DNA from: Acidobacteriota bacterium
GTDB taxonomy: Bacteria; Acidobacteriota; Vicinamibacteria; Vicinamibacterales; JAKQTR01
Assembly: GCA_029562975.1 (NCBI GenBank)
Contig: JAKQTR010000040.1
Coordinates: 64,683 to 128,682 of the forward strand
Reading direction: 5' to 3'
Length of the DNA: 64,000 bases
In this document: positions 21,780 to 61,466 of the stretch, in pieces
Position numbering within the stretch: the first letter of the stretch is position 1
Layout of the letters: the number at the start of each line of letters is the position of its first letter
The notes under the pieces: model-generated
Databases searched by the model: none
What the model was told of the DNA's origin: nothing
What the model saw: the letters and a program-made list of their open reading frames with translations, nothing else
Made by a program: the position numbers and the translations under genes

Positions 21780-22010
21780 GTGAGCAGGAACGACGAAGCG
21801 GCACCGCGATCGGTCCGGGGCCGGCAGCTGGCGTGCCCTGTCTGCCGGCACACGCAGTTCTACTCGCGCTCCTACTTGCTGAACACGAGGGTCGCGAGCT
21901 TCTTCAACTTCGACTGGGCGAACCGCTCCGCCCTGACCTACGTGTGCGAGCAGTGCGGCCACATCCTGTGGTTTGCCGCGGACCCGGACCACCCGGACCA
22001 CCAGGAGTAG
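21780..22010 (+). CDS. small zinc-ribbon protein (two CxxC pairs), function unknown
   Basis: GTG at 21780 with GGGAGG 6 nt upstream. 76 aa with 'CPVC' and 'CEQC' about 40 aa apart. Confidence 0.5.
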   Translation: MSRNDEAAPRSVRGRQLACPVCRHTQFYSRSYLLNTRVASFFNFDWANRSALTYVCEQCGHILWFAADPDHPDHQE

Positions 22011-22134: not shown

Positions 22135-22551
22135 TCAGGGCTGCTTCTCGAAACACCGGAAGGCCCCGGCCGCCGCGATCTCCCGGTACGGGCGGGTCGA
22201 GATGAAGGCGAGCGCCTGGGAGTTTCGCGCGTCAATCCGCGCAAGCAGCACGTAGCCCTGCCTCGAGCAAAGCCCTTCGAAGTGCTCGTGCAGGAAGGAC
22301 CCGAGGCCCCGACGCCGGTGGCTGGCGGCCACGCTGAGCCCGCCTTCGGCCTTGCCCAGGCCCCGGATGACCAGGTTCGCGGCAGCGACCATGACCGGGC
22401 CGTCGAACACGCCGTAGTTGAGGCGAGCGGGGTCGTTGAAGGCCGCTTCGTTCGGGACCAGCGCGAGACGAACGTCGCGCTCGGACAGGCCCGACTGGAA
22501 GTACGCCGCGGCAACGGGGAAGTCGGCCCGGGACAGCCCGCGCAGGACCAT
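22135..22551 (-). CDS. GNAT-family N-acetyltransferase (small)
   Basis: In-frame ATG at 22551 (MVLRGLSRADF..); an upstream GTG near 22711 is possible. 'VAASHRRRGLGSFL' matches the acetyl-CoA-binding R/Q-x-x-G-x-G/A motif. Confidence 0.6.
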   Translation of the reverse strand: MVLRGLSRADFPVAAAYFQSGLSERDVRLALVPNEAAFNDPARLNYGVFDGPVMVAAANLVIRGLGKAEGGLSVAASHRRRGLGSFLHEHFEGLCSRQGYVLLARIDARNSQALAFISTRPYREIAAAGAFRCFEKQP

Positions 22552-22745
22552 GGTCGTGCCCGGGACCGGAATTGACGCCGAGAAGGCAGGGTCGCGCCTC
22601 CTGAACCGGCGGGCAATCGCGCTGAGGCCGGCCTCTCTGAGGCGATGGTACAGGCGCTTCGGCAAGAGGCGGCTGGCTGCGGCAATCACCGGAGGCTTCC
22701 CGGGAGTCACGAGCGTCGATGCCCCATCGGCAGGCCGACGCGCGC

Positions 22746-23804
22746 CTACCGGTAGTCCCGGAACGGCAGCTGGCAGTCGTGCTTGCGCAGGAAGTTCAGG
22801 AAGCGCTTGTAGTCGCCCGGGTCCATGTTGAAGAGCTTCGTGACGATCTTGTAGTTGCCCTTGGCCTCCTCGAGGCCTTTCGACACGAGCTCGCGGAGGT
22901 TCCCGCGCGTGATCTCCCGCTGCATGTAGAGGGGGTAGACTGCCGTCCAGAAGGACTCGCGGTTGACCGTCATGCGCTTGTACAGCTCGTCGGCCACCGA
23001 GCGCCGGCGCTCGCGCTTCGGGCGCAGGCTGATGCCGCGCTGCGACCGGACTTCGACGGGCACGTCGGCCAGCCCGATCTCGGGGCCGCAGCCCGAGACC
23101 ACGATGCGCTCGATGACGTTGGCAAGCTCGCGGACGTTGCCGGGCCACGAGTACTCGGCGAGCGCGGCGTACGCCTCGGGCGTGATCCGCAGCTTCCGGT
23201 CGTTGTCCAGGCTCTCGAGAAAGGCCTCGACGAGCATCGGGATGTCCTCGCGCCGCTCGCGGAGCGGCGGCACCTGGATGTTGATGACGTTGATCCGGTA
23301 GTAGAGGTCCTCCCGGAACGAGCCCTGGGACACCATGTCCGCGATCAAGCGGTTCGTGGCCGCGATGACGCGGACATCGACGTGGCGCCCGACGCGATCC
23401 GCGCCGACCTTCTGCAGCTCGCCGGTCTCGAGGAAGCGGAGCAGCATGCCCTGCATGCGCAGGCTCATCTCGCCGATCTCGTCCAGGAAGATCGTGCCTT
23501 CGTCGGCTTTCTCGAGCATGCCGGCCTTGTCCCGGTACGCGCCCGTGAAGCTCCCCTTCACGTGGCCGAACAGCTCCGATTCCAGGAGCGTCTCGGGCAG
23601 TCCCGCGCAGTTCACCGTGACGAAAGGGCGGTCGGCGCGCAGGCTGTGCGAATGGATGCTCAGCGCGACCAGCTCCTTGCCGACGCCGCTCTCGCCCGTG
23701 ATCAGGATCTTGGCGTCGCTGAGAGCGACGCGGCGGATCTCCTCCTGGAGCGCGAGGATCGCGGGGCTCCGGCCCACGAGCTGCCCGAAGTCGTTCCTAG
23801 GCAC
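22746..23804 (-). CDS. sigma54-dependent transcriptional activator (bacterial enhancer-binding protein) lacking any N-terminal sensory/receiver domain
   Basis: GTG at 23804. The AAA+ core starts at residue ~8 ('LVGRSPAILAL'). Walker A 'GESGVGKE', 'ESELFGHVKGSFTGA' (GAFTGA-type loop), 'IFLDEIGE' (Walker B), 'RVIAATN', 'REDLYYRINV', 'WPGNVREL'. C-terminal HTH-like 'AKGNYKIVTKLFNM..YKRFLNFLRKH'. Confidence 0.9.
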   Translation of the reverse strand: MPRNDFGQLVGRSPAILALQEEIRRVALSDAKILITGESGVGKELVALSIHSHSLRADRPFVTVNCAGLPETLLESELFGHVKGSFTGAYRDKAGMLEKADEGTIFLDEIGEMSLRMQGMLLRFLETGELQKVGADRVGRHVDVRVIAATNRLIADMVSQGSFREDLYYRINVINIQVPPLRERREDIPMLVEAFLESLDNDRKLRITPEAYAALAEYSWPGNVRELANVIERIVVSGCGPEIGLADVPVEVRSQRGISLRPKRERRRSVADELYKRMTVNRESFWTAVYPLYMQREITRGNLRELVSKGLEEAKGNYKIVTKLFNMDPGDYKRFLNFLRKHDCQLPFRDYR

Positions 23805-24138
23805 CGTGGTCGCTTCCCCTCAGCAGGCAGTCGACGGCCGTTCTCGCCTCGGGGGCGAGGTCGAGGAACCGTCCTCCGACCCGGTAGCCGCCGGAGCGCT
23901 GGTCCCACTGCCTGGACACGTGCCGGACGTCCAGCCTGGCATCGAGCGCACGGTCGCCGAGCCTGGCGATCACCCGCGGGCCGGCCTCCGCCGCGATCGG
24001 ATCCGGGCAGGCCAGGAGGACGCCGTCCGAGCTCACGTCGAGCACCCTGACGGCCATCGAAACCGGCCGGATCATGACGGCGGCGCCCCCCAGCGGCACG
24101 CGCGGCGACCGGCGCCGCTCGACCAGGCCACGATCCAT
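23797..24138 (-). CDS. stand-alone PilZ-domain protein (canonical c-di-GMP motifs)
   Basis: ATG at 24138; 113 aa. 'RRSPR' (RxxxR) and 'DVSSDG' (DxSxxG). Its TAG stop at 23797-23799 overlaps the activator start by 8 nt. Confidence 0.75.
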   Translation of the reverse strand: MDRGLVERRRSPRVPLGGAAVMIRPVSMAVRVLDVSSDGVLLACPDPIAAEAGPRVIARLGDRALDARLDVRHVSRQWDQRSGGYRVGGRFLDLAPEARTAVDCLLRGSDHGA

Positions 24139-24139
24139 G

Positions 24140-24493
24140 TCAGTCCTCGTTCGCCGGTGGCGGCTCCCGGCACTCGTCCATGAGGGCGCCGATGCTCTCG
24201 GCGGCCCGCTTGCCGATGTCGATAAACTCGAGGCCGACCCTGTACCGCCGGCCGCCATCCTGCAGATGGATCGGCGACAGGTGGCGGACAATCGCCCGCA
24301 TGTCGATCGCCTGGCCGTCTCGCACGACCCTGATCGGCTGCACCGACCCCACCGGCAGGGGCGCGACCGATTCGACGAGCGCGCCTTCTGGGGCGAGGTT
24401 GAAAACGTGCAGGGGCTCGAGGGCCTGGACCGAGCCCCACAGCTCGCCGACGATCTCGAAGCGCGTGGCCGCCCGCCGGTCAGCTAGTCGCAT
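24140..24493 (-). CDS. stand-alone PilZ-domain protein (second motif degenerate)
   Basis: ATG at 24493; 117 aa. 'RAATR' (RxxxR), but 'NLAPEG' where (D/N)xSxxG is expected. The stop lies 1 nt before the next PilZ start. Confidence 0.65.
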   Translation of the reverse strand: MRLADRRAATRFEIVGELWGSVQALEPLHVFNLAPEGALVESVAPLPVGSVQPIRVVRDGQAIDMRAIVRHLSPIHLQDGGRRYRVGLEFIDIGKRAAESIGALMDECREPPPANED

Positions 24494-24586: not shown

Positions 24587-24603
24587 AAGCAAGGACGACG
24601 CCA
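24587..24603 (-). promoter_or_regulatory. candidate sigma54 (-24/-12) promoter of the PilZ-PilZ-activator operon
   Basis: The minus strand reads TGGCGT-CGTCC-TTGCTT against consensus TGGCAC-N5-TTGCW, with exact GG-N10-GC spacing. It is intergenic, correctly oriented, and ~95 nt upstream of the ATG at 24493. Confidence 0.5.
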
Positions 24604-24845
24604 ACGTTAGTGTCAGGCGTTGGCTGGCTCGGCCGACAGGCGCACGCGGAAATCCGGCCTGAAAACCACCGCGTTCCTTGTTGAGGCCCACGAAGTCACC
24701 CGCGGGGTGGTCAGAAGTCTGACAACGGCGCGACAAGATTCTGCCAAGAAGCGCCTCTTCAGTCAACCGCGGCCAGGACCTCCGACGCGTCCAATCGCCT
24801 TCCGAATCCTCGAATGCCGGCAAGCGCGCGGATCCCCAGCCCGAA

Positions 24846-24874
24846 TTGACGCTCCCGACGGCGGTATCGATAAT
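24846..24874 (+). promoter_or_regulatory. candidate sigma70-type promoter TTGACG-N17-GATAAT, 7 nt before ATG 24882 (predicts a leaderless mRNA)
   Basis: TTGACG at 24846-24851, a 17-nt spacer, then GATAAT at 24869-24874. The ATG at 24882 sits at the expected +1 position. Confidence 0.4.
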
Positions 24875-29068: not shown

Positions 29069-29273
29069 AGGCCGCCCTCCGGGCGCCGGGAGTGCCCCGA
29101 CCCGGCCATACTGACTGCGGCCGCGCGACGGAACGGCAGGGGCAGGGCTGACTTTAGTCGTCCTCCTGGAGGGTTTCTCGGCTGGCTGCCTTCGCCGCCG
29201 CAGTCTGTCTTTGAGTCGGTCAACATGCTGATTAGAAACGAGTTGTACGACGAAGACAAGGCCGTGTCAATCA

Positions 29274-29290
29274 TGGCCCACACCATGCTT
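29274..29290 (+). promoter_or_regulatory. weaker sigma54-type promoter match upstream of the priming-transferase operon
   Basis: TGGCCC-ACACC-ATGCTT with exact GG-N10-GC spacing, in the low-GC divergent intergenic region. The GC lies only 16 nt before ATG 29304. Confidence 0.3.
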
Positions 29291-29303: not shown

Positions 29304-29981
29304 ATGCCATTCGTATCATCGGCTCTGCTTCGCGAAAACCGTATACCGATTCGCGGCGGAGTCCTGCCCCTGGACCGGCGGCTCAATCAGAACATCAAGG
29401 CCATCTCCGACCGCCTGCTGGGCGCCGCCGCCGCGCTCCTCGCCGCGCCCCTGATGCTCGTGGTCGCGGCCCTCGTGAAGCTCACAAGCGAAGGCCCGAT
29501 CATCCACCGGCGGCGCGTGGTCGGCAGGGGCGGCGTTGAGTTCGACGCGTTCAAGTTCCGCACGATGGTCGCCAACGCCGACCAGATCCTCGCGGCCGAC
29601 CCGGCGCTCAGGCGCGGGTTCCTGCAGAAACACAAGATCGAGGACGATCCCAGGGTCACTCCAGTCGGACGCTTCCTTCGGAAGCTGAGCCTTGACGAGC
29701 TTCCGCAGTTCTTCAACGTGCTCGCAGGGCAGATGTCGGTCGTGGGGCCGCGCATGCTGTCACCCGAGGAGATCGACCGCTACGGCGCCCACGTCGCGGC
29801 GCTCCTGTCGGTGAAGCCCGGCCTGACAGGGCTCTGGCAGGTGTCGGGCCGGCAGCGCACGACGTACGAGCGCCGCATCCAGCTCGACATGCAGTATGTC
29901 AGAACATGGAGCCTGTGGCTCGACCTGCGCATCCTGGCCAGGACGCCCATCGAGGTCTTCAGAGGCACAGGAGCGTTCTAG
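29304..29981 (+). CDS. polyprenyl-phosphate sugar-phosphate transferase (bacterial sugar transferase family; priming enzyme)
   Basis: ATG at 29304. 'KAISDRLLGAAAALLAAPLMLVVALV', 'GPIIHRRRVVGRGGVEFDAFKFRTM', 'DELPQFFNVLAGQMSVVGPR' and 'KPGLTGLWQVSGR'. Confidence 0.85.
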   Translation: MPFVSSALLRENRIPIRGGVLPLDRRLNQNIKAISDRLLGAAAALLAAPLMLVVAALVKLTSEGPIIHRRRVVGRGGVEFDAFKFRTMVANADQILAADPALRRGFLQKHKIEDDPRVTPVGRFLRKLSLDELPQFFNVLAGQMSVVGPRMLSPEEIDRYGAHVAALLSVKPGLTGLWQVSGRQRTTYERRIQLDMQYVRTWSLWLDLRILARTPIEVFRGTGAF

Positions 29982-43843: not shown

Positions 43844-45100
43844 ATGCGGATCCTCTTCCTGACCGAGACCATTCCGTTTCCGCTCGATAGCGGCGGGCGG
43901 GTCAAGACGTACCACACGCTCCAGTCGCTGGCGGACGAGCACGAGATCCACTGCCATGCCTTCATCCGGTCGGCAGCGGAACGGCGCCACGCGGGCGAGC
44001 TGGAGCGGCACTGCGCGTCGCTGACCCTCCACCTGCGTCCGCCCAGGCCCGCGCGGGAGGCCGGGGCGCTCGCCCTGAGCCTGGCGACGCGAACGCCCTT
44101 CACCGTGGCGCGGCACTACTTCCGCGGCGTGCTCCGCCGCCTCGTGAGGTCCTGCGCCGAGCGCCGCTTCGACGCGGCGTACTACGACCACCTCAGCATG
44201 CTCGCGTACGCGCGGCGCGTCGGGCTGCCCGCCATCCACGACGCGCACAACGTCGAGTACGACCTGGTCAGGCGCCACGCCGCCACGCTGCCCTGGTCTC
44301 CCGTCCGGCTGTTCGTCGAGCGGGAGTGGCGGTTGCTGAGACGGTACGAACGGGCGCGGTACGCGCGATGCGGCCTCATCTTCGCCGTGAGCGAACGGGA
44401 CGCCGCGGCGATTCGGTCGCTCGCAGGCGGCGAGCCCGAGGTGCGCGTCGTGCCGATCTCGATTGACGCGCGCGCCATGCCGGCCGGCGGCCCTCGCCCG
44501 CGCCGCCCGGACCTGCTGTTTGTGGGCGGCCTGCACTGGCCGCCGAACGCCGACGCCGTGGCCCACTTCGCCCGCGACATCTGGCCCCTCGTCCGACACG
44601 AGGCGCCGGATGCGACCCTGACCGTCGTGGGCCGAGACGACGCGCCGGTGGCCCGAACCCTCCGGCGGATCGACGGCATCCGCCTCGCCGGGCGCGTGCC
44701 TGACGTGGCGCCCTATTTCGAGAGGGCCCGCGCCTTCGTCGTTCCGCTTCGAGCCGGGGGCGGCATGAGGGTCAAGATCCTCGAAGCGCTGGCGCGCGGT
44801 CTGCCGGTTGTCAGCACCGCGATCGGCGTCGAGGGCATCGATGCCGCGCATGGGGTCCACCTGCTGGTGGCCGATGACCCGGGATCGTTCGCGCGGGCGG
44901 TGAGCCAGGTCGTCGGCAACGACGGCCTGGCTGCGGAACTCGCCGCCGCCGGGAGGAGGCTGGTGCTGGAGCGTTATGATCGCTCGGTGGTCGGAGAGAA
45001 GCTGCGCCGGGACCTGAGGGAGTGCGGCGACCGTCTGGGACGACCGACCGATGCCGTAGAGGGCAGACAAAAGTCGGCTAGCAAGGCGAGTTTTGATTGA
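43844..45100 (+). CDS. GT4-family glycosyltransferase
   Basis: ATG at 43844 ('MRILFLTETIPFPLDSGGRVKTYH'). 'GGMRVKILEALARGLPVVSTAIGVEGI'. Confidence 0.8.
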   Translation: MRILFLTETIPFPLDSGGRVKTYHTLQSLADEHEIHCHAFIRSAAERRHAGELERHCASLTLHLRPPRPAREAGALALSLATRTPFTVARHYFRGVLRRLVRSCAERRFDAAYYDHLSMLAYARRVGLPAIHDAHNVEYDLVRRHAATLPWSPVRLFVEREWRLLRRYERARYARCGLIFAVSERDAAAIRSLAGGEPEVRVVPISIDARAMPAGGPRPRRPDLLFVGGLHWPPNADAVAHFARDIWPLVRHEAPDATLTVVGRDDAPVARTLRRIDGIRLAGRVPDVAPYFERARAFVVPLRAGGGMRVKILEALARGLPVVSTAIGVEGIDAAHGVHLLVADDPGSFARAVSQVVGNDGLAAELAAAGRRLVLERYDRSVVGEKLRRDLRECGDRLGRPTDAVEGRQKSASKASFD

Positions 45101-45246: not shown

Positions 45247-45263
45247 GGGCACGAGTCTTGCTG
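45247..45263 (+). promoter_or_regulatory. candidate sigma54 (-24/-12) promoter inside the long plus-strand EPS operon
   Basis: GGGCACG-AGTC-TTGCTG, i.e. GGCAC-N5-TTGCT with exact GG-N10-GC spacing. It lies in the only sizeable (223 nt) gap of the operon, ~60 nt upstream of ATG 45324. Confidence 0.5.
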
Positions 45264-54351: not shown

Positions 54352-54637
54352 GGCTGGGGAGAAACGCCCGGACTGTTCGATCTCGTTCATGGAGCGGCAT
54401 TTCATTCCTGCAGCGACGGGATCCTCTCCGATAACCCCGAGCTTGTACCGAGTTGCGGTGACTATTGTCTTCCCGATCGGGACATGTGCCGACAGCACAA
54501 GCCACCACGCGAAGTAATCTCGAAATCCGCTGGAAGCCCAGCCGAGGCGCCTCGCGGGGAGTCTGCTAGAGTTCTTTCGGGCGAAATGCCAGGCTCGTTC
54601 AGCCCAGGACCGGCGCCCAACCCTGGGGGATCCGGGC

Positions 54638-54653
54638 TGGCAGGCGCCTTGCG
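54638..54653 (+). promoter_or_regulatory. candidate sigma54 (-24/-12) promoter of the tandem CelD-like gene
   Basis: TGGCAG-GCGCC-TTGCG with exact GG-N10-GC spacing. It is intergenic and correctly oriented, with the GC 19 nt before ATG 54671. Confidence 0.5.
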
Positions 54654-59663: not shown

Positions 59664-61466
59664 TCATCCGCCGATCTTCGCCCGCAGGGCCTTGACCTCG
59701 TCTCCGCTCTCGAGGTCGGGCTGGAGCCGGACGGCTTCCTTCAGCTCGGCCGCCGCCTCGTCGACTCGGCCGAGCGCGGCGTAGATCGCCGAGAGGTGCA
59801 GCCGGTGCATGGCGCTCGACGAGGCGGACCTGGCCGCCTGCTCCTGGATGGGCAGGGCCTCGGCGTCGCGTCCCAGGAGATGCAGCACCCAGGCGTATGT
59901 ATCCGCGATCTCCGGGCTCCGTCCGCCCGAGAGCCTGTACGCCCGTTCCGCGTGGGGAAGCGCTTCGGCGGCCTGGCCCTTCCGCACCGCCAGCGCGTAG
60001 GCGAGGTTGTTGAGCGCCAGCACGTTGCCCGCCTGCTCGGCCAGCACGAGCCGGTAGCGCTCGATGGCCTTGTCGGTGTCCTGGCCGGCCTCGTATTCAC
60101 CCGCAAGCTGAAGGTGCGCCCCGACGAGCGTCGCATCGAGGGCCGTCGCCTCTTCGAGCGCCTTCCGCGCCCCGGCCTTGTCGCCGCCGGAGGCGAGCGC
60201 CTCCGCCCGCAGGACCGCCCGGGCCGCGTCGGGACGCGTGCCGGCCGATGTCAGCACCTGCAGGCGCCGCTCGGCAAACCGCGCGGGCAGCCCCGACGCC
60301 GAGTCGAGGCCCGCGTCGATGTCGGACGAAGGCACCGCCCGGCGCGGGAAGGGCGCGCAGAGGGGATCGCCAACCACTACGGTCCGCCAGCTCACGTACG
60401 GCATCGCCAGGTAGAACGACTCGGCCAGGTTGAAGCCGGCCGCGTAGGCCGGAAAGAGGATGTCGGGACGGATCGTGGCGTCCAGGAACGGCTCGTCCAC
60501 GTGAGCGGCAATGCCGGTCACGCCTTCCCGGATGAGATCGCCGGCGAGCGACTGCGGAGAGCCGGCAAAGAAGCCGGCCCGGTCGGTCCACCTGCCGATC
60601 GTCCATCCGGCGGGCGGCTCCGTGAAGGTGCGGCCGTCCGTGCTGACGAACGTGCCGGCAATGGCGCCGGGCACGAAGCCGAGGTCGAGCCGGCGCTTGG
60701 TGATCGCCGCGTCGTTCGATCCCCAGGAGAAGTAGCCAAGGACGTCCTTTTCGCCCGTCAGGGCCTTGCCGGTGGGCTCGAGCACGACGCGATCCCCCAG
60801 GCCCGCTTCGCGAAGGCGCGCGGCCGCGGCGGCCAGCCACCGGTTGCCGGCGCTCTCCGCTGGCCCGGCTTCCTGGTCCAGCAGGAAGCGGCCCTCGCGC
60901 GACGGAGCTGCCCCCCGGTCGATGAGCCCGACGACATCCGCCGCCGTGAAGCCGTCGAGGCGGACGACGAGGTACAGCTCGGAAGTCGCGCGGCTGAACG
61001 GTCCTGCCTCCGCGATCGGCGCCGCGCCGAGGAAGTACGGATTGGGGATGCGCCCGGCCACCGCCGGCTCGCGTCCAAGCAGCCGCTGGTAGAGCAGCGT
61101 CAACTCCGAGTCCACGCTCGCGGCCGTGCCGTCGCGGCCGGGGGTGCCTTTGACCCGGAGCGGGACGCCTTTCGCCAGAACGATGTAGAGGATGCGATCC
61201 TGGGCGGCGTGCTGGCGCAGCCAGTTGGCGATGGGCGCCTGGATCTGGGTGTTGAATGCCGCCCGCTCGATCTCGTCTGCGACCTCCGCCTTGATGCGGA
61301 GCACCTGGTCGGCCGGCACGCTGCGGCTGTGGGCGTAGTACTCGGCGATCCGGACCGAATCTGGGTGCGCCTCGTTGGCGACCACGAGCACGTTGGCGCC
61401 GGTCTGGGCGAGAGCCGGCGCCGCGAGGACCAGCGCCGCGAGGACCGCGGACAGCAAGCGATGCAT
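59664..61466 (-). CDS. secreted protein: N-terminal domain resembling the TIGR03790 conserved-hypothetical family, fused to C-terminal TPR repeats
   Basis: ATG at 61466 with a signal peptide. 'VLVVANEAHPDSVRIAEYYAHSRSVPADQVL' and 'IAAHVDEPFLD..VVGDPLCAPF'. The last ~200 aa are TPR-like ('ALNNLAYALAV..', 'ADTYAWVLHLLG'). Confidence 0.55.
   Translation of the reverse strand: MHRLLSAVLAALVLAAPALAQTGANVLVVANEAHPDSVRIAEYYAHSRSVPADQVLRIKAEVADEIERAAFNTQIQAPIANWLRQHAAQDRILYIVLAKGVPLRVKGTPGRDGTAASVDSELTLLYQRLLGREPAVAGRIPNPYFLGAAPIAEAGPFSRATSELYLVVRLDGFTAADVVGLIDRGAAPSREGRFLLDQEAGPAESAGNRWLAAAAARLREAGLGDRVVLEPTGKALTGEKDVLGYFSWGSNDAAITKRRLDLGFVPGAIAGTFVSTDGRTFTEPPAGWTIGRWTDRAGFFAGSPQSLAGDLIREGVTGIAAHVDEPFLDATIRPDILFPAYAAGFNLAESFYLAMPYVSWRTVVVGDPLCAPFPRRAVPSSDIDAGLDSASGLPARFAERRLQVLTSAGTRPDAARAVLRAEALASGGDKAGARKALEEATALDATLVGAHLQLAGEYEAGQDTDKAIERYRLVLAEQAGNVLALNNLAYALAVRKGQAAEALPHAERAYRLSGGRSPEIADTYAWVLHLLGRDAEALPIQEQAARSASSSAMHRLHLSAIYAALGRVDEAAAELKEAVRLQPDLESGDEVKALRAKIGG

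Follow-up and report, generated by a model that had tools for sequence, protein, structure and literature searches.

A pair of stand-alone PilZ proteins encoded with a sensor-less σ54 activator suggests a new route from c-di-GMP to exopolysaccharide genes in Vicinamibacteria

What controls a σ54-dependent activator that has no sensor domain of its own? The question is raised by three genes in a 64-kb stretch of Vicinamibacterales DNA (contig JAKQTR010000040.1, positions 64,683 to 128,682; G+C ~70%), referred to here as the window, in which two stand-alone PilZ proteins and an activator of the bacterial enhancer-binding protein (EBP) family are encoded one after the other beside an exopolysaccharide (EPS) locus. 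The original prediction, made from the sequence without database searches, was that the PilZ proteins supply the missing input function in trans, in response to cyclic di-GMP (c-di-GMP). We found that the PilZ pair is conserved next to the activator and that its predicted promoter is accompanied by putative upstream activator sites (UAS) that recur before EPS genes. The operon suggests, short of proof, that c-di-GMP may turn on EPS genes by a new route. Judged from gene linkage, the reading that the PilZ duo would supply or modulate the input of the EBP in trans has about as much to be said for it as against it. The three genes are the following.

24493 to 24140, minus strand: PilZ-2 (distal PilZ), 117 aa, ATG start, GGAG 8 nt 5′ of the start
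24138 to 23797, minus strand: PilZ-1 (proximal PilZ), 113 aa, with RRSPR and DVSSDG
23804 to 22746, minus strand: sensor-less σ54 activator (EBP), 352 aa, GTG start

Re-reading of the window reproduced exactly the packing that had been described, three minus-strand genes with a 1-nt gap and an 8-nt overlap. The PilZ-2 stop codon (TGA, 24142-24140) is separated by a single base, c, from the PilZ-1 ATG at 24138 (TGA-c-ATG), and the PilZ-1 TAG and the EBP GTG (23804) overlap by 8 nt in a junction that reads GTGCCTAG. Because an in-frame TGA lies at 23822-23820, 18 nt 5′ of the GTG, an N-terminal extension of the EBP is impossible. Pfam analysis placed Sigma54_activat at residues 9-177 (E = 2.8e-67, spanning positions 1-168 of the 168-position profile) and AAA_lid_14 at residues 182-256, and detected no domain N-terminal to Sigma54_activat. 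EBP homologs of 70-100% identity are all 339-356 aa long, and none of ~80 orthologous loci has room for a sensor domain before the EBP or a start codon that would add one. The claim that the activator lacks an input domain was thus confirmed by Pfam and by the in-frame stop. The AAA+ core contains the Walker A sequence GESGVGKE and the GSFTGA loop that had been read from the translation, together with FLDEIGE; the loop, of GAFTGA type (residues 84-89), retains F and T and is invariant in 20 homologs. By its AAA+ domain and this loop the protein is a bacterial EBP. Its alignments to ZraR, NtrC and FleQ gave E <= 1e-70, and an NCBI protein from a Vicinamibacterales metagenome-assembled genome is 99% identical to it. 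None of the NCBIfam equivalog cutoffs for NorR, NifA, PspF and PrsR was reached by the EBP. No rpoN gene lies within the 64-kb window.

With the EBP C-terminal domain as query and one genome per species, we obtained 302 relatives and fetched and examined 80 loci, all but one of which are labelled Acidobacteriota or Vicinamibacteria. Two same-strand PilZ open reading frames (ORFs) were located directly upstream of the EBP in ~56 of these 80 loci. The reverse search used a narrower alignment of the distal PilZ, the broader alignment being too divergent for a genome scan, and returned 35 loci; in 33 of the 33 that are not cut by a contig end, an EBP followed 700-850 nt downstream. The synteny expected by the original prediction was therefore recovered from both anchors. 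In the related loci, the spacing from one PilZ gene to the other seldom falls outside -8 to +20 nt. On a neighbour-joining tree of the EBPs, PilZ-linked loci occurred on both sides of the deepest split and PilZ-less loci were scattered in at least six clades, indicating that the PilZ pair is ancestral and has repeatedly been lost or relocated. Wza-like, beta-barrel, ExeA-like ATPase and Wzz genes come immediately after the EBP in most relatives; in the window's clade the export genes lie 28 kb off on a separate transcription unit and the triad is still intact. What stays linked with the PilZ pair is the EBP and no EPS gene: the other window neighbours are not conserved beside the triad, and more distant EBPs (L007-L080) were found without a PilZ neighbour.

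We also observed that a conserved 540-660-aa protein, which is not encoded in the window, precedes the PilZ pair in ~35 loci (L134:4405-6393; also, for example, L093, L100, L107, L117, L121, L125 and L127), and that where it is present the σ54 promoter of the operon stands before its gene. It had no Pfam match at 1e-3. Its C-terminus is weakly GGDEF_2-like (E = 0.028), and ~10 copies carry RxxD-x5-G at I-site spacing. A role as diguanylate cyclase was set aside, given the weak GGDEF_2 similarity and an RxxD in some copies only, but the protein could be another c-di-GMP-related component with a degenerate GGDEF fold.

Do the two PilZ proteins look like c-di-GMP receptors? Against PF07238 (Pfam cutoff, 22.5 bits), PilZ-1 scored 25.3 bits and PilZ-2 only 19.3 bits, so that the domain assignment held directly for PilZ-1 but not for PilZ-2, which is nevertheless homologous to PilZ-1 by hhalign (probability 95.5%, E = 1.6e-8). 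The motifs read earlier were found in the translations: PilZ-1 has both RxxxR (RRSPR) and [D/N]xSxxG (DVSSDG), and PilZ-2 has RxxxR (RAATR) and NLAPEG, in which the Ser of the second motif is replaced by Ala and the strict motif is lost. Counted over 53 PilZ-PilZ loci, the proximal PilZ shows RRxxxR in 52/53, D in 52/53, S in 50/53 and the final G in 53/53; the distal PilZ shows RRxxxR in 52-53/53, N (44) or D (9) at the first position of the second motif, G (28), S (14) or A (11) at the third, and the final G in 53/53. Both proteins thus look selected for nucleotide binding, as far as conserved residues can tell. The missing Ser of PilZ-2 does not rule out binding, because Myxococcus xanthus PixB binds c-di-GMP although its PilZ domains are without this Ser (PMC8316039). 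The best sequence match in the PDB was the Alg44 PilZ domain, at E ~0.5. All close homologs of PilZ-1 stand alone, at 109-113 aa. In public annotation the exact PilZ-1 protein (P0121) is called as 92 aa from Met22, which removes the conserved RRSPR; since the PilZ-1 homologs are called at 113 aa, this shorter call is suspect and probably an annotation error.

The two PilZ proteins are paralogous, always adjacent and, in some lineages, fused. Within the window they are two separate ORFs, and no single polypeptide there holds two PilZ domains. A fused di-PilZ ORF of 220-260 aa lies directly upstream of the EBP in six loci (L088, L108, L131, L136, L151 and L157); these fusions are probably genuine, because they cluster on the EBP tree, four in one clade and a fifth on the sister branch. 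Another fused di-PilZ (P0261, locus L199) adjoins an EBP. A profile search among 1.84 billion representative proteins gave 1560 PilZ relatives, and two-domain proteins of 190-280 aa made up about one third of the best 150, which were examined.

If the EBP and the PilZ pair form a regulatory unit, what does the unit act on? The region upstream of PilZ-2 contains the following predicted elements.

24589 to 24603, minus strand: σ54-type promoter TGGCGTCGTCCTTGC (-24/-12 elements), ~96 nt upstream of the PilZ-2 ATG
24688 to 24745, minus strand: three UAS-like repeats, namely GAATCTTGTC (24741-24732), the palindrome GTCAGACTTCTGAC (24723-24710) and GACTTCGTGG (24697-24688)

The pattern TGGC-N7-TTGC has two matches in the 64 kb, at 24603 (operon) and at 54638 (EPS promoter), and a position weight matrix applied to the window at a strict threshold returned the 24603 site only. 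In the related loci (1.11 Mb, counted on both strands), TGGC-N7-TTGC[ATC] matched 94 times, and 60 of these matches lay on the operon strand within 3.3 kb upstream of the EBP, so placed in 51 of 79 loci. The motif stands before the leading gene of the operon, be it the distal PilZ gene, the gene for the 540-660-aa protein or, in PilZ-less loci, the EBP gene. A GAC-W4-GTC inverted repeat (consensus AGACTTTTGTCT) was found 94-149 nt upstream of 27 of the 60 operon promoters; among 65 such sites in the 1.11 Mb, 28 were at -94 to -149 of a promoter. When the region before the window operon was aligned with five intergenic regions from relatives (mean identity, 51%), TGGC and TTGC were invariant at a fixed spacing. 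Three UAS-like blocks, at about -95, -118 and -140, were conserved in the window's clade; in relatives these positions are occupied by strict GAC-W4-GTC.

Two σ70-like matches were also seen in the divergent intergenic region, at 24738-24766 (minus strand) and 24846-24874 (plus strand), against a chance expectation of 0.1. The one on the minus strand runs into the first UAS-like block and could provide basal expression of the PilZ-EBP operon.

Elsewhere in the window, each of the three strict GAC-W4-GTC sites has, 118-181 nt downstream, a σ54-like motif that agrees with the consensus at 9 or more of 11 positions, a pairing that random placement equalled in 2 of 100,000 trials. All three lie at EPS genes.

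29150 to 29159, plus strand: UAS GACTTTAGTC, with a σ54-like promoter TGGCCCACACCATGCT at 29274-29289, before the gene 29304-29981 for a priming sugar transferase (Bac_transf, E = 4e-60)
45066 to 45075, plus strand: UAS GACAAAAGTC, with a σ54-like promoter GGGCACGAGTCTTGCT at 45247-45262, before a GT2 gene (probable start ATG 45324, end 46577)
54460 to 54469: UAS GACTATTGTC, between divergent σ54-like promoters
54351 to 54336, minus strand: σ54-like promoter facing beta-barrel porin, Wza-like and Wzc-like genes
54638 to 54653, plus strand: σ54-like promoter facing an 808-aa gene, function not assigned

As sequence patterns, then, four UAS-linked units with five promoter-like sites are present in the window. 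Across the window as a whole, σ54 consensus counts were not enriched over shuffles, so the case for the EPS promoters is made by their pairing with UAS and not by motif counts. This qualifies the earlier statement that a 39-kb EPS locus carries σ54-type promoters: the locus was confirmed and five UAS-paired sites were found, but a window-wide enrichment of the consensus was not. The locus adjoins the operon, runs from ~24.8 kb to ~58-61 kb and includes genes of the XrtA/PEP-CTERM type. What is new is a conserved candidate σ54 promoter with GAC-W4-GTC-type sites at the operon and three further predicted site-promoter pairs at EPS genes. The leaders of the three EPS units are short, ~5-60 nt from the expected transcription start to the start codon. 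A 600-aa protein (59664-61466, minus strand) has both a TIGR03790-family domain and PrsT-like TPR repeats, a further link to XrtA/PEP-CTERM systems.

A candidate reader of the UAS is the EBP's C-terminal domain. Column identity in its ~95 aa (window 22749-23033) averages 80% when EBPs down to an overall identity of 64-66% are included. In a set of 15 sequences 45 columns are invariant, and the motifs include ESFW..VYPLYM.REI and DYKRFLNFLRKH.CQ.PF. An AlphaFold2 model of this domain has six helices with a predicted local distance difference test score (pLDDT) of 84, and its helix-turn-helix (HTH)-like helices score ~90; a model of the full-length EBP had a mean pLDDT of 64 in the AAA+ core and was set aside. 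The "HTH tail" of the original prediction escaped direct detection: Pfam gave no HTH_8 match to the EBP tail even at E <= 10, Foldseek found no PDB match for the domain, and hhalign against Fis was empty. Residues 300-343 can nevertheless be matched one for one to the HTH_8, verified by Pfam, of an EBP with 44% identity, apart from three residues inserted in the turn. Because of this transitive alignment, the tail reads as a divergent Fis-type HTH, probably preceded by a family-specific helical segment.

Taken together, how might such a locus work? The EBP C-terminal domain would bind GAC-W4-GTC-type sites ~95-180 bp upstream of σ54 promoters, and the EBP would thereby activate its own operon in positive feedback, along with at least three EPS units, those of the priming sugar transferase, the GT2 gene and the porin-Wza-Wzc export genes. 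The two PilZ paralogs may act as one heterodimeric, di-PilZ-like c-di-GMP receptor, which could contact the AAA+ domain of the EBP and gate its oligomerisation or ATPase activity. In such a scheme c-di-GMP would stand in for the missing cis sensor, much as PspA acts on PspF or HrpV on HrpS in trans. Since the output is EPS, we favour the sign in which the EBP would be activated, or relieved of inhibition, at high c-di-GMP. A single autoregulated promoter for the PilZ and EBP genes would fix their ratio and could produce a c-di-GMP-gated switch. In its most complete form (a split di-PilZ heterodimer as the c-di-GMP-sensing subunit that gates the AAA+ ring of a PspF-like EBP, with an autoregulated σ54 promoter that yields a bistable EPS switch throughout the Vicinamibacteria) the scheme is tentative, and we consider it somewhat likelier to fail than to hold.

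Several observations weigh against input from the PilZ pair. No adjacent PilZ is present beside the EBP in ~20 of the 80 loci, those in at least six scattered clades, so that the EBP can function, or be controlled, with no PilZ beside it. The gap between the proximal PilZ and the EBP ranges from -17 to +195 nt among related loci, and the tight PilZ-1/EBP overlap is therefore a trait of the window's own clade. No PilZ-EBP fusion was found, either by length among the best 150 of the 1560 PilZ relatives or among close PilZ-1 homologs. Of four fused or close PilZ homologs whose surroundings were looked up, two were directly upstream of a sensor-less EBP, and the other two (L196:2568-3296 and L197:2646-3699), ~45-52% identical to the window's proteins, followed thioredoxin/DsbA-like and PNPOx-like genes as a PilZ pair or di-PilZ and were without an EBP as far as these loci extend (none within 4 kb in L196; the L197 contig stops just past the PilZ genes). 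Since related pairs occur in a context without an EBP, the pair is a functional unit by itself and has no strict tie to the EBP. In the window operon itself, the UAS copies are imperfect. Finally, a comparison of PilZ-linked with PilZ-less EBPs revealed no position conserved solely in the PilZ-linked group. With the PilZ-less EBPs, the EBP-less pairs, and the lack of fusions and of PilZ-specific residues weighed against it, we hold the trans-input reading at an even balance.

The sole hint of specificity in that comparison is at EBP residue 48 (window 23663-23661), the FleQ R185 position after Walker A, which is Arg in most EBPs. H, L or M is typical of the PilZ-linked proteins, and Arg occurs in 4/48 PilZ-linked versus 11/19 PilZ-less EBPs; the residue thus appears to be correlated with PilZ linkage, in counts that are uncorrected for phylogeny.

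The PilZ pair may instead act on a target other than the EBP, such as EPS assembly or export or another enzyme, and merely be co-transcribed with an EBP for which abundance is the only means of control, set by autoregulation, basal promoters or other factors. Such an account would accommodate the related PilZ pairs without an EBP, the EBP orthologs without PilZ, the continuation of the operon in most relatives into Wza-like, ATPase and Wzz genes, and the σ70-like match at 24766-24738. PilZ receptors, Alg44 and BcsA among them, generally exert their effect on polysaccharide machines at the post-translational level, which also speaks for it. On the other hand, we know of no PilZ partner in Wzx/Wzy-type pathways, it is the EBP, and not an EPS gene, that is conserved beside the pair, the export genes are 28 kb off in the window's clade, and the EBP was downstream in 33 of 33 PilZ-anchored loci. 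We regard mere co-transcription as unlikely, but as having a real chance of being correct.

A second alternative is that neither PilZ protein, or only one, binds c-di-GMP, and that they are nucleotide-independent adaptors or structural subunits. There is a model for this, as a non-binding Xanthomonas PilZ bridges FimX and PilB. The PilZ-2 score under the Pfam cutoff, the lost Ser of its second motif, marginal Pfam scores for both proteins and an Alg44 match of only E ~0.5 would all fit. The near-invariance in both proteins of RRxxxR (52-53/53) and of D/N and G in the second motif (52-53/53), however, is hard to explain without nucleotide binding, and PixB binds c-di-GMP despite the same missing Ser. 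Nucleotide-independent action is accordingly improbable in our view.

More improbable still is that the pair is a DNA- or RNA-polymerase-binding co-activator, a split MrkH that works beside the EBP. The arrangement fits the xPilZ-PilZ architecture of MrkH and YcgR-like proteins (bioRxiv 10.1101/814665), fused di-PilZ forms are common, and the promoter region holds several repeated sites. The repeats, however, lie at classic enhancer distances from a σ54 promoter, the highly conserved C-terminal domain of the EBP is the obvious DNA binder, and UAS and promoter persist at PilZ-less loci.

Direct sensing of c-di-GMP by the AAA+ domain of the EBP in the manner of FleQ or as reported for Nla24/EpsI, with the PilZ proteins only buffering or delivering the nucleotide, has equally little probability: EBPs that respond to c-di-GMP have no established mechanism other than binding it directly (PMC3424551, PMC6158489, PMC8316039) and the AAA+ core is 45-50% similar to that of FleQ, but the FleQ contact residues R144, R185, N186, E330 and R334 correspond to G7, L48, S49, A194 and S198 in the window EBP, and the family consensus also differs from FleQ at all five. 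By alignment, the FleQ-type c-di-GMP site is absent, and because all five contact residues are replaced the EBP is unlikely to bind c-di-GMP in FleQ fashion, although it could bind it directly in another mode.

The range 22135-24493 that had been assigned to the PilZ-PilZ-EBP triad does hold it, but it also contains a fourth gene that went unmentioned.

22710 to 22135, minus strand: GNAT acetyltransferase, 191 aa (Acetyltransf_1, 25.1 bits, E = 2.3e-5)

This gene starts 35 nt 3′ of the EBP stop, on the same strand. The G+C content at third codon positions is 0.87-0.96 across PilZ-2, PilZ-1, EBP and GNAT (0.87 for GNAT itself), which supports all four ORFs as real genes. A GNAT gene adjoined the triad in 0 of 86 related loci, and we therefore rejected it as a member of a PixB-like (PilZ-PilZ-GNAT) module. 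The divergent FemAB-like neighbour was in none of the related loci, and the remaining window neighbours were likewise not conserved beside the triad. A 76-aa zinc-ribbon-like ORF (21780-22010, plus strand), next to a Dpp7-like peptidase gene, is kept in L082 and L084.

How does the locus compare with systems that are already known? The original prediction knew of no characterised example of the arrangement, and our literature search was likewise without a precedent for a PilZ-σ54 EBP adaptor system. FleQ (Pseudomonas aeruginosa), VpsR (Vibrio cholerae) and Nla24/EpsI (M. xanthus) likewise belong to the EBP family and link c-di-GMP to EPS transcription, and the AAA+ core of the window EBP is homologous to that of FleQ (E ~1e-71). 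These regulators, however, bind c-di-GMP themselves and carry N-terminal REC-like domains, whereas the window EBP has no N-terminal domain; unlike VpsR, it also has an intact GAFTGA-type loop (GSFTGA). In consisting of an AAA+ core and a DNA-binding tail only, it resembles PspF of Escherichia coli and HrpR/S of Pseudomonas syringae, and the likeness to PspF-PspA and HrpR/S-HrpV extends to a small co-regulated protein as the candidate input in trans. The whole-protein PspF model aligns to EBP residues 9-342, but the score of 262.1 is far from the equivalog cutoff of 443.55 (TIGR02974), and no psp genes are nearby. The partners in those systems are PspA/IM30 and HrpV; here the candidate partner is a PilZ pair encoded upstream in the EBP operon, and the predicted output is EPS genes.

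Small stand-alone PilZ proteins that pass the c-di-GMP state to a partner are known from MapZ-CheR1, HapZ-SagS, YcgR and the flagellar motor, and the Xanthomonas PilZ-FimX-PilB system. One such partner, PilB, is an ATPase, but none is a σ54 EBP, and in the window two paralogous PilZ proteins are present. The pair itself recalls tandem PilZ proteins (Bll4394, SMc00999, YcgR, MrkH and PixB), which have two barrels in series with the upstream one more degenerate, as here. It differs from them in that the domains are encoded by separate, translationally coupled genes and that both keep RxxxR. M. xanthus PixB is PilZ-PilZ-GNAT and lacks the Ser; the window has a GNAT gene after the triad, although it is not conserved with it. 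The PrsK/PrsR system of PEP-CTERM/XrtA loci also places a σ54 EBP at an EPS locus, and the shared XrtA-type genes include stp1 glycosyltransferases, Wza-like, chain-length/tyrosine-kinase, ExeA-like ATPase, beta-barrel porin and PrsT-like TPR genes. The window EBP, however, reaches only 273.6 against the PrsR cutoff of 502.6 (TIGR02915), aligns to profile positions 139-405 only and lacks a receiver domain, and there is no adjacent gene for a PrsK kinase.

The Vicinamibacteria are abundant but rarely cultured soil bacteria, and the analysis proposes for them a concrete EPS regulon, with a UAS consensus, candidate σ54 promoters and putative target genes, in a module compact enough (three small proteins and one DNA site) to suit reconstitution in vitro. 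If the trans-input reading is true, this would be the first partnership between PilZ proteins and an EBP, and it would open a third route, after direct binding and riboswitches, from c-di-GMP to σ54-dependent transcription. It would also mean that sensing has been outsourced to a separate receptor, joining the PilZ adaptors to the PspF-type EBPs that are regulated in trans; the locus itself brings known elements together in an arrangement for which there is no earlier description.

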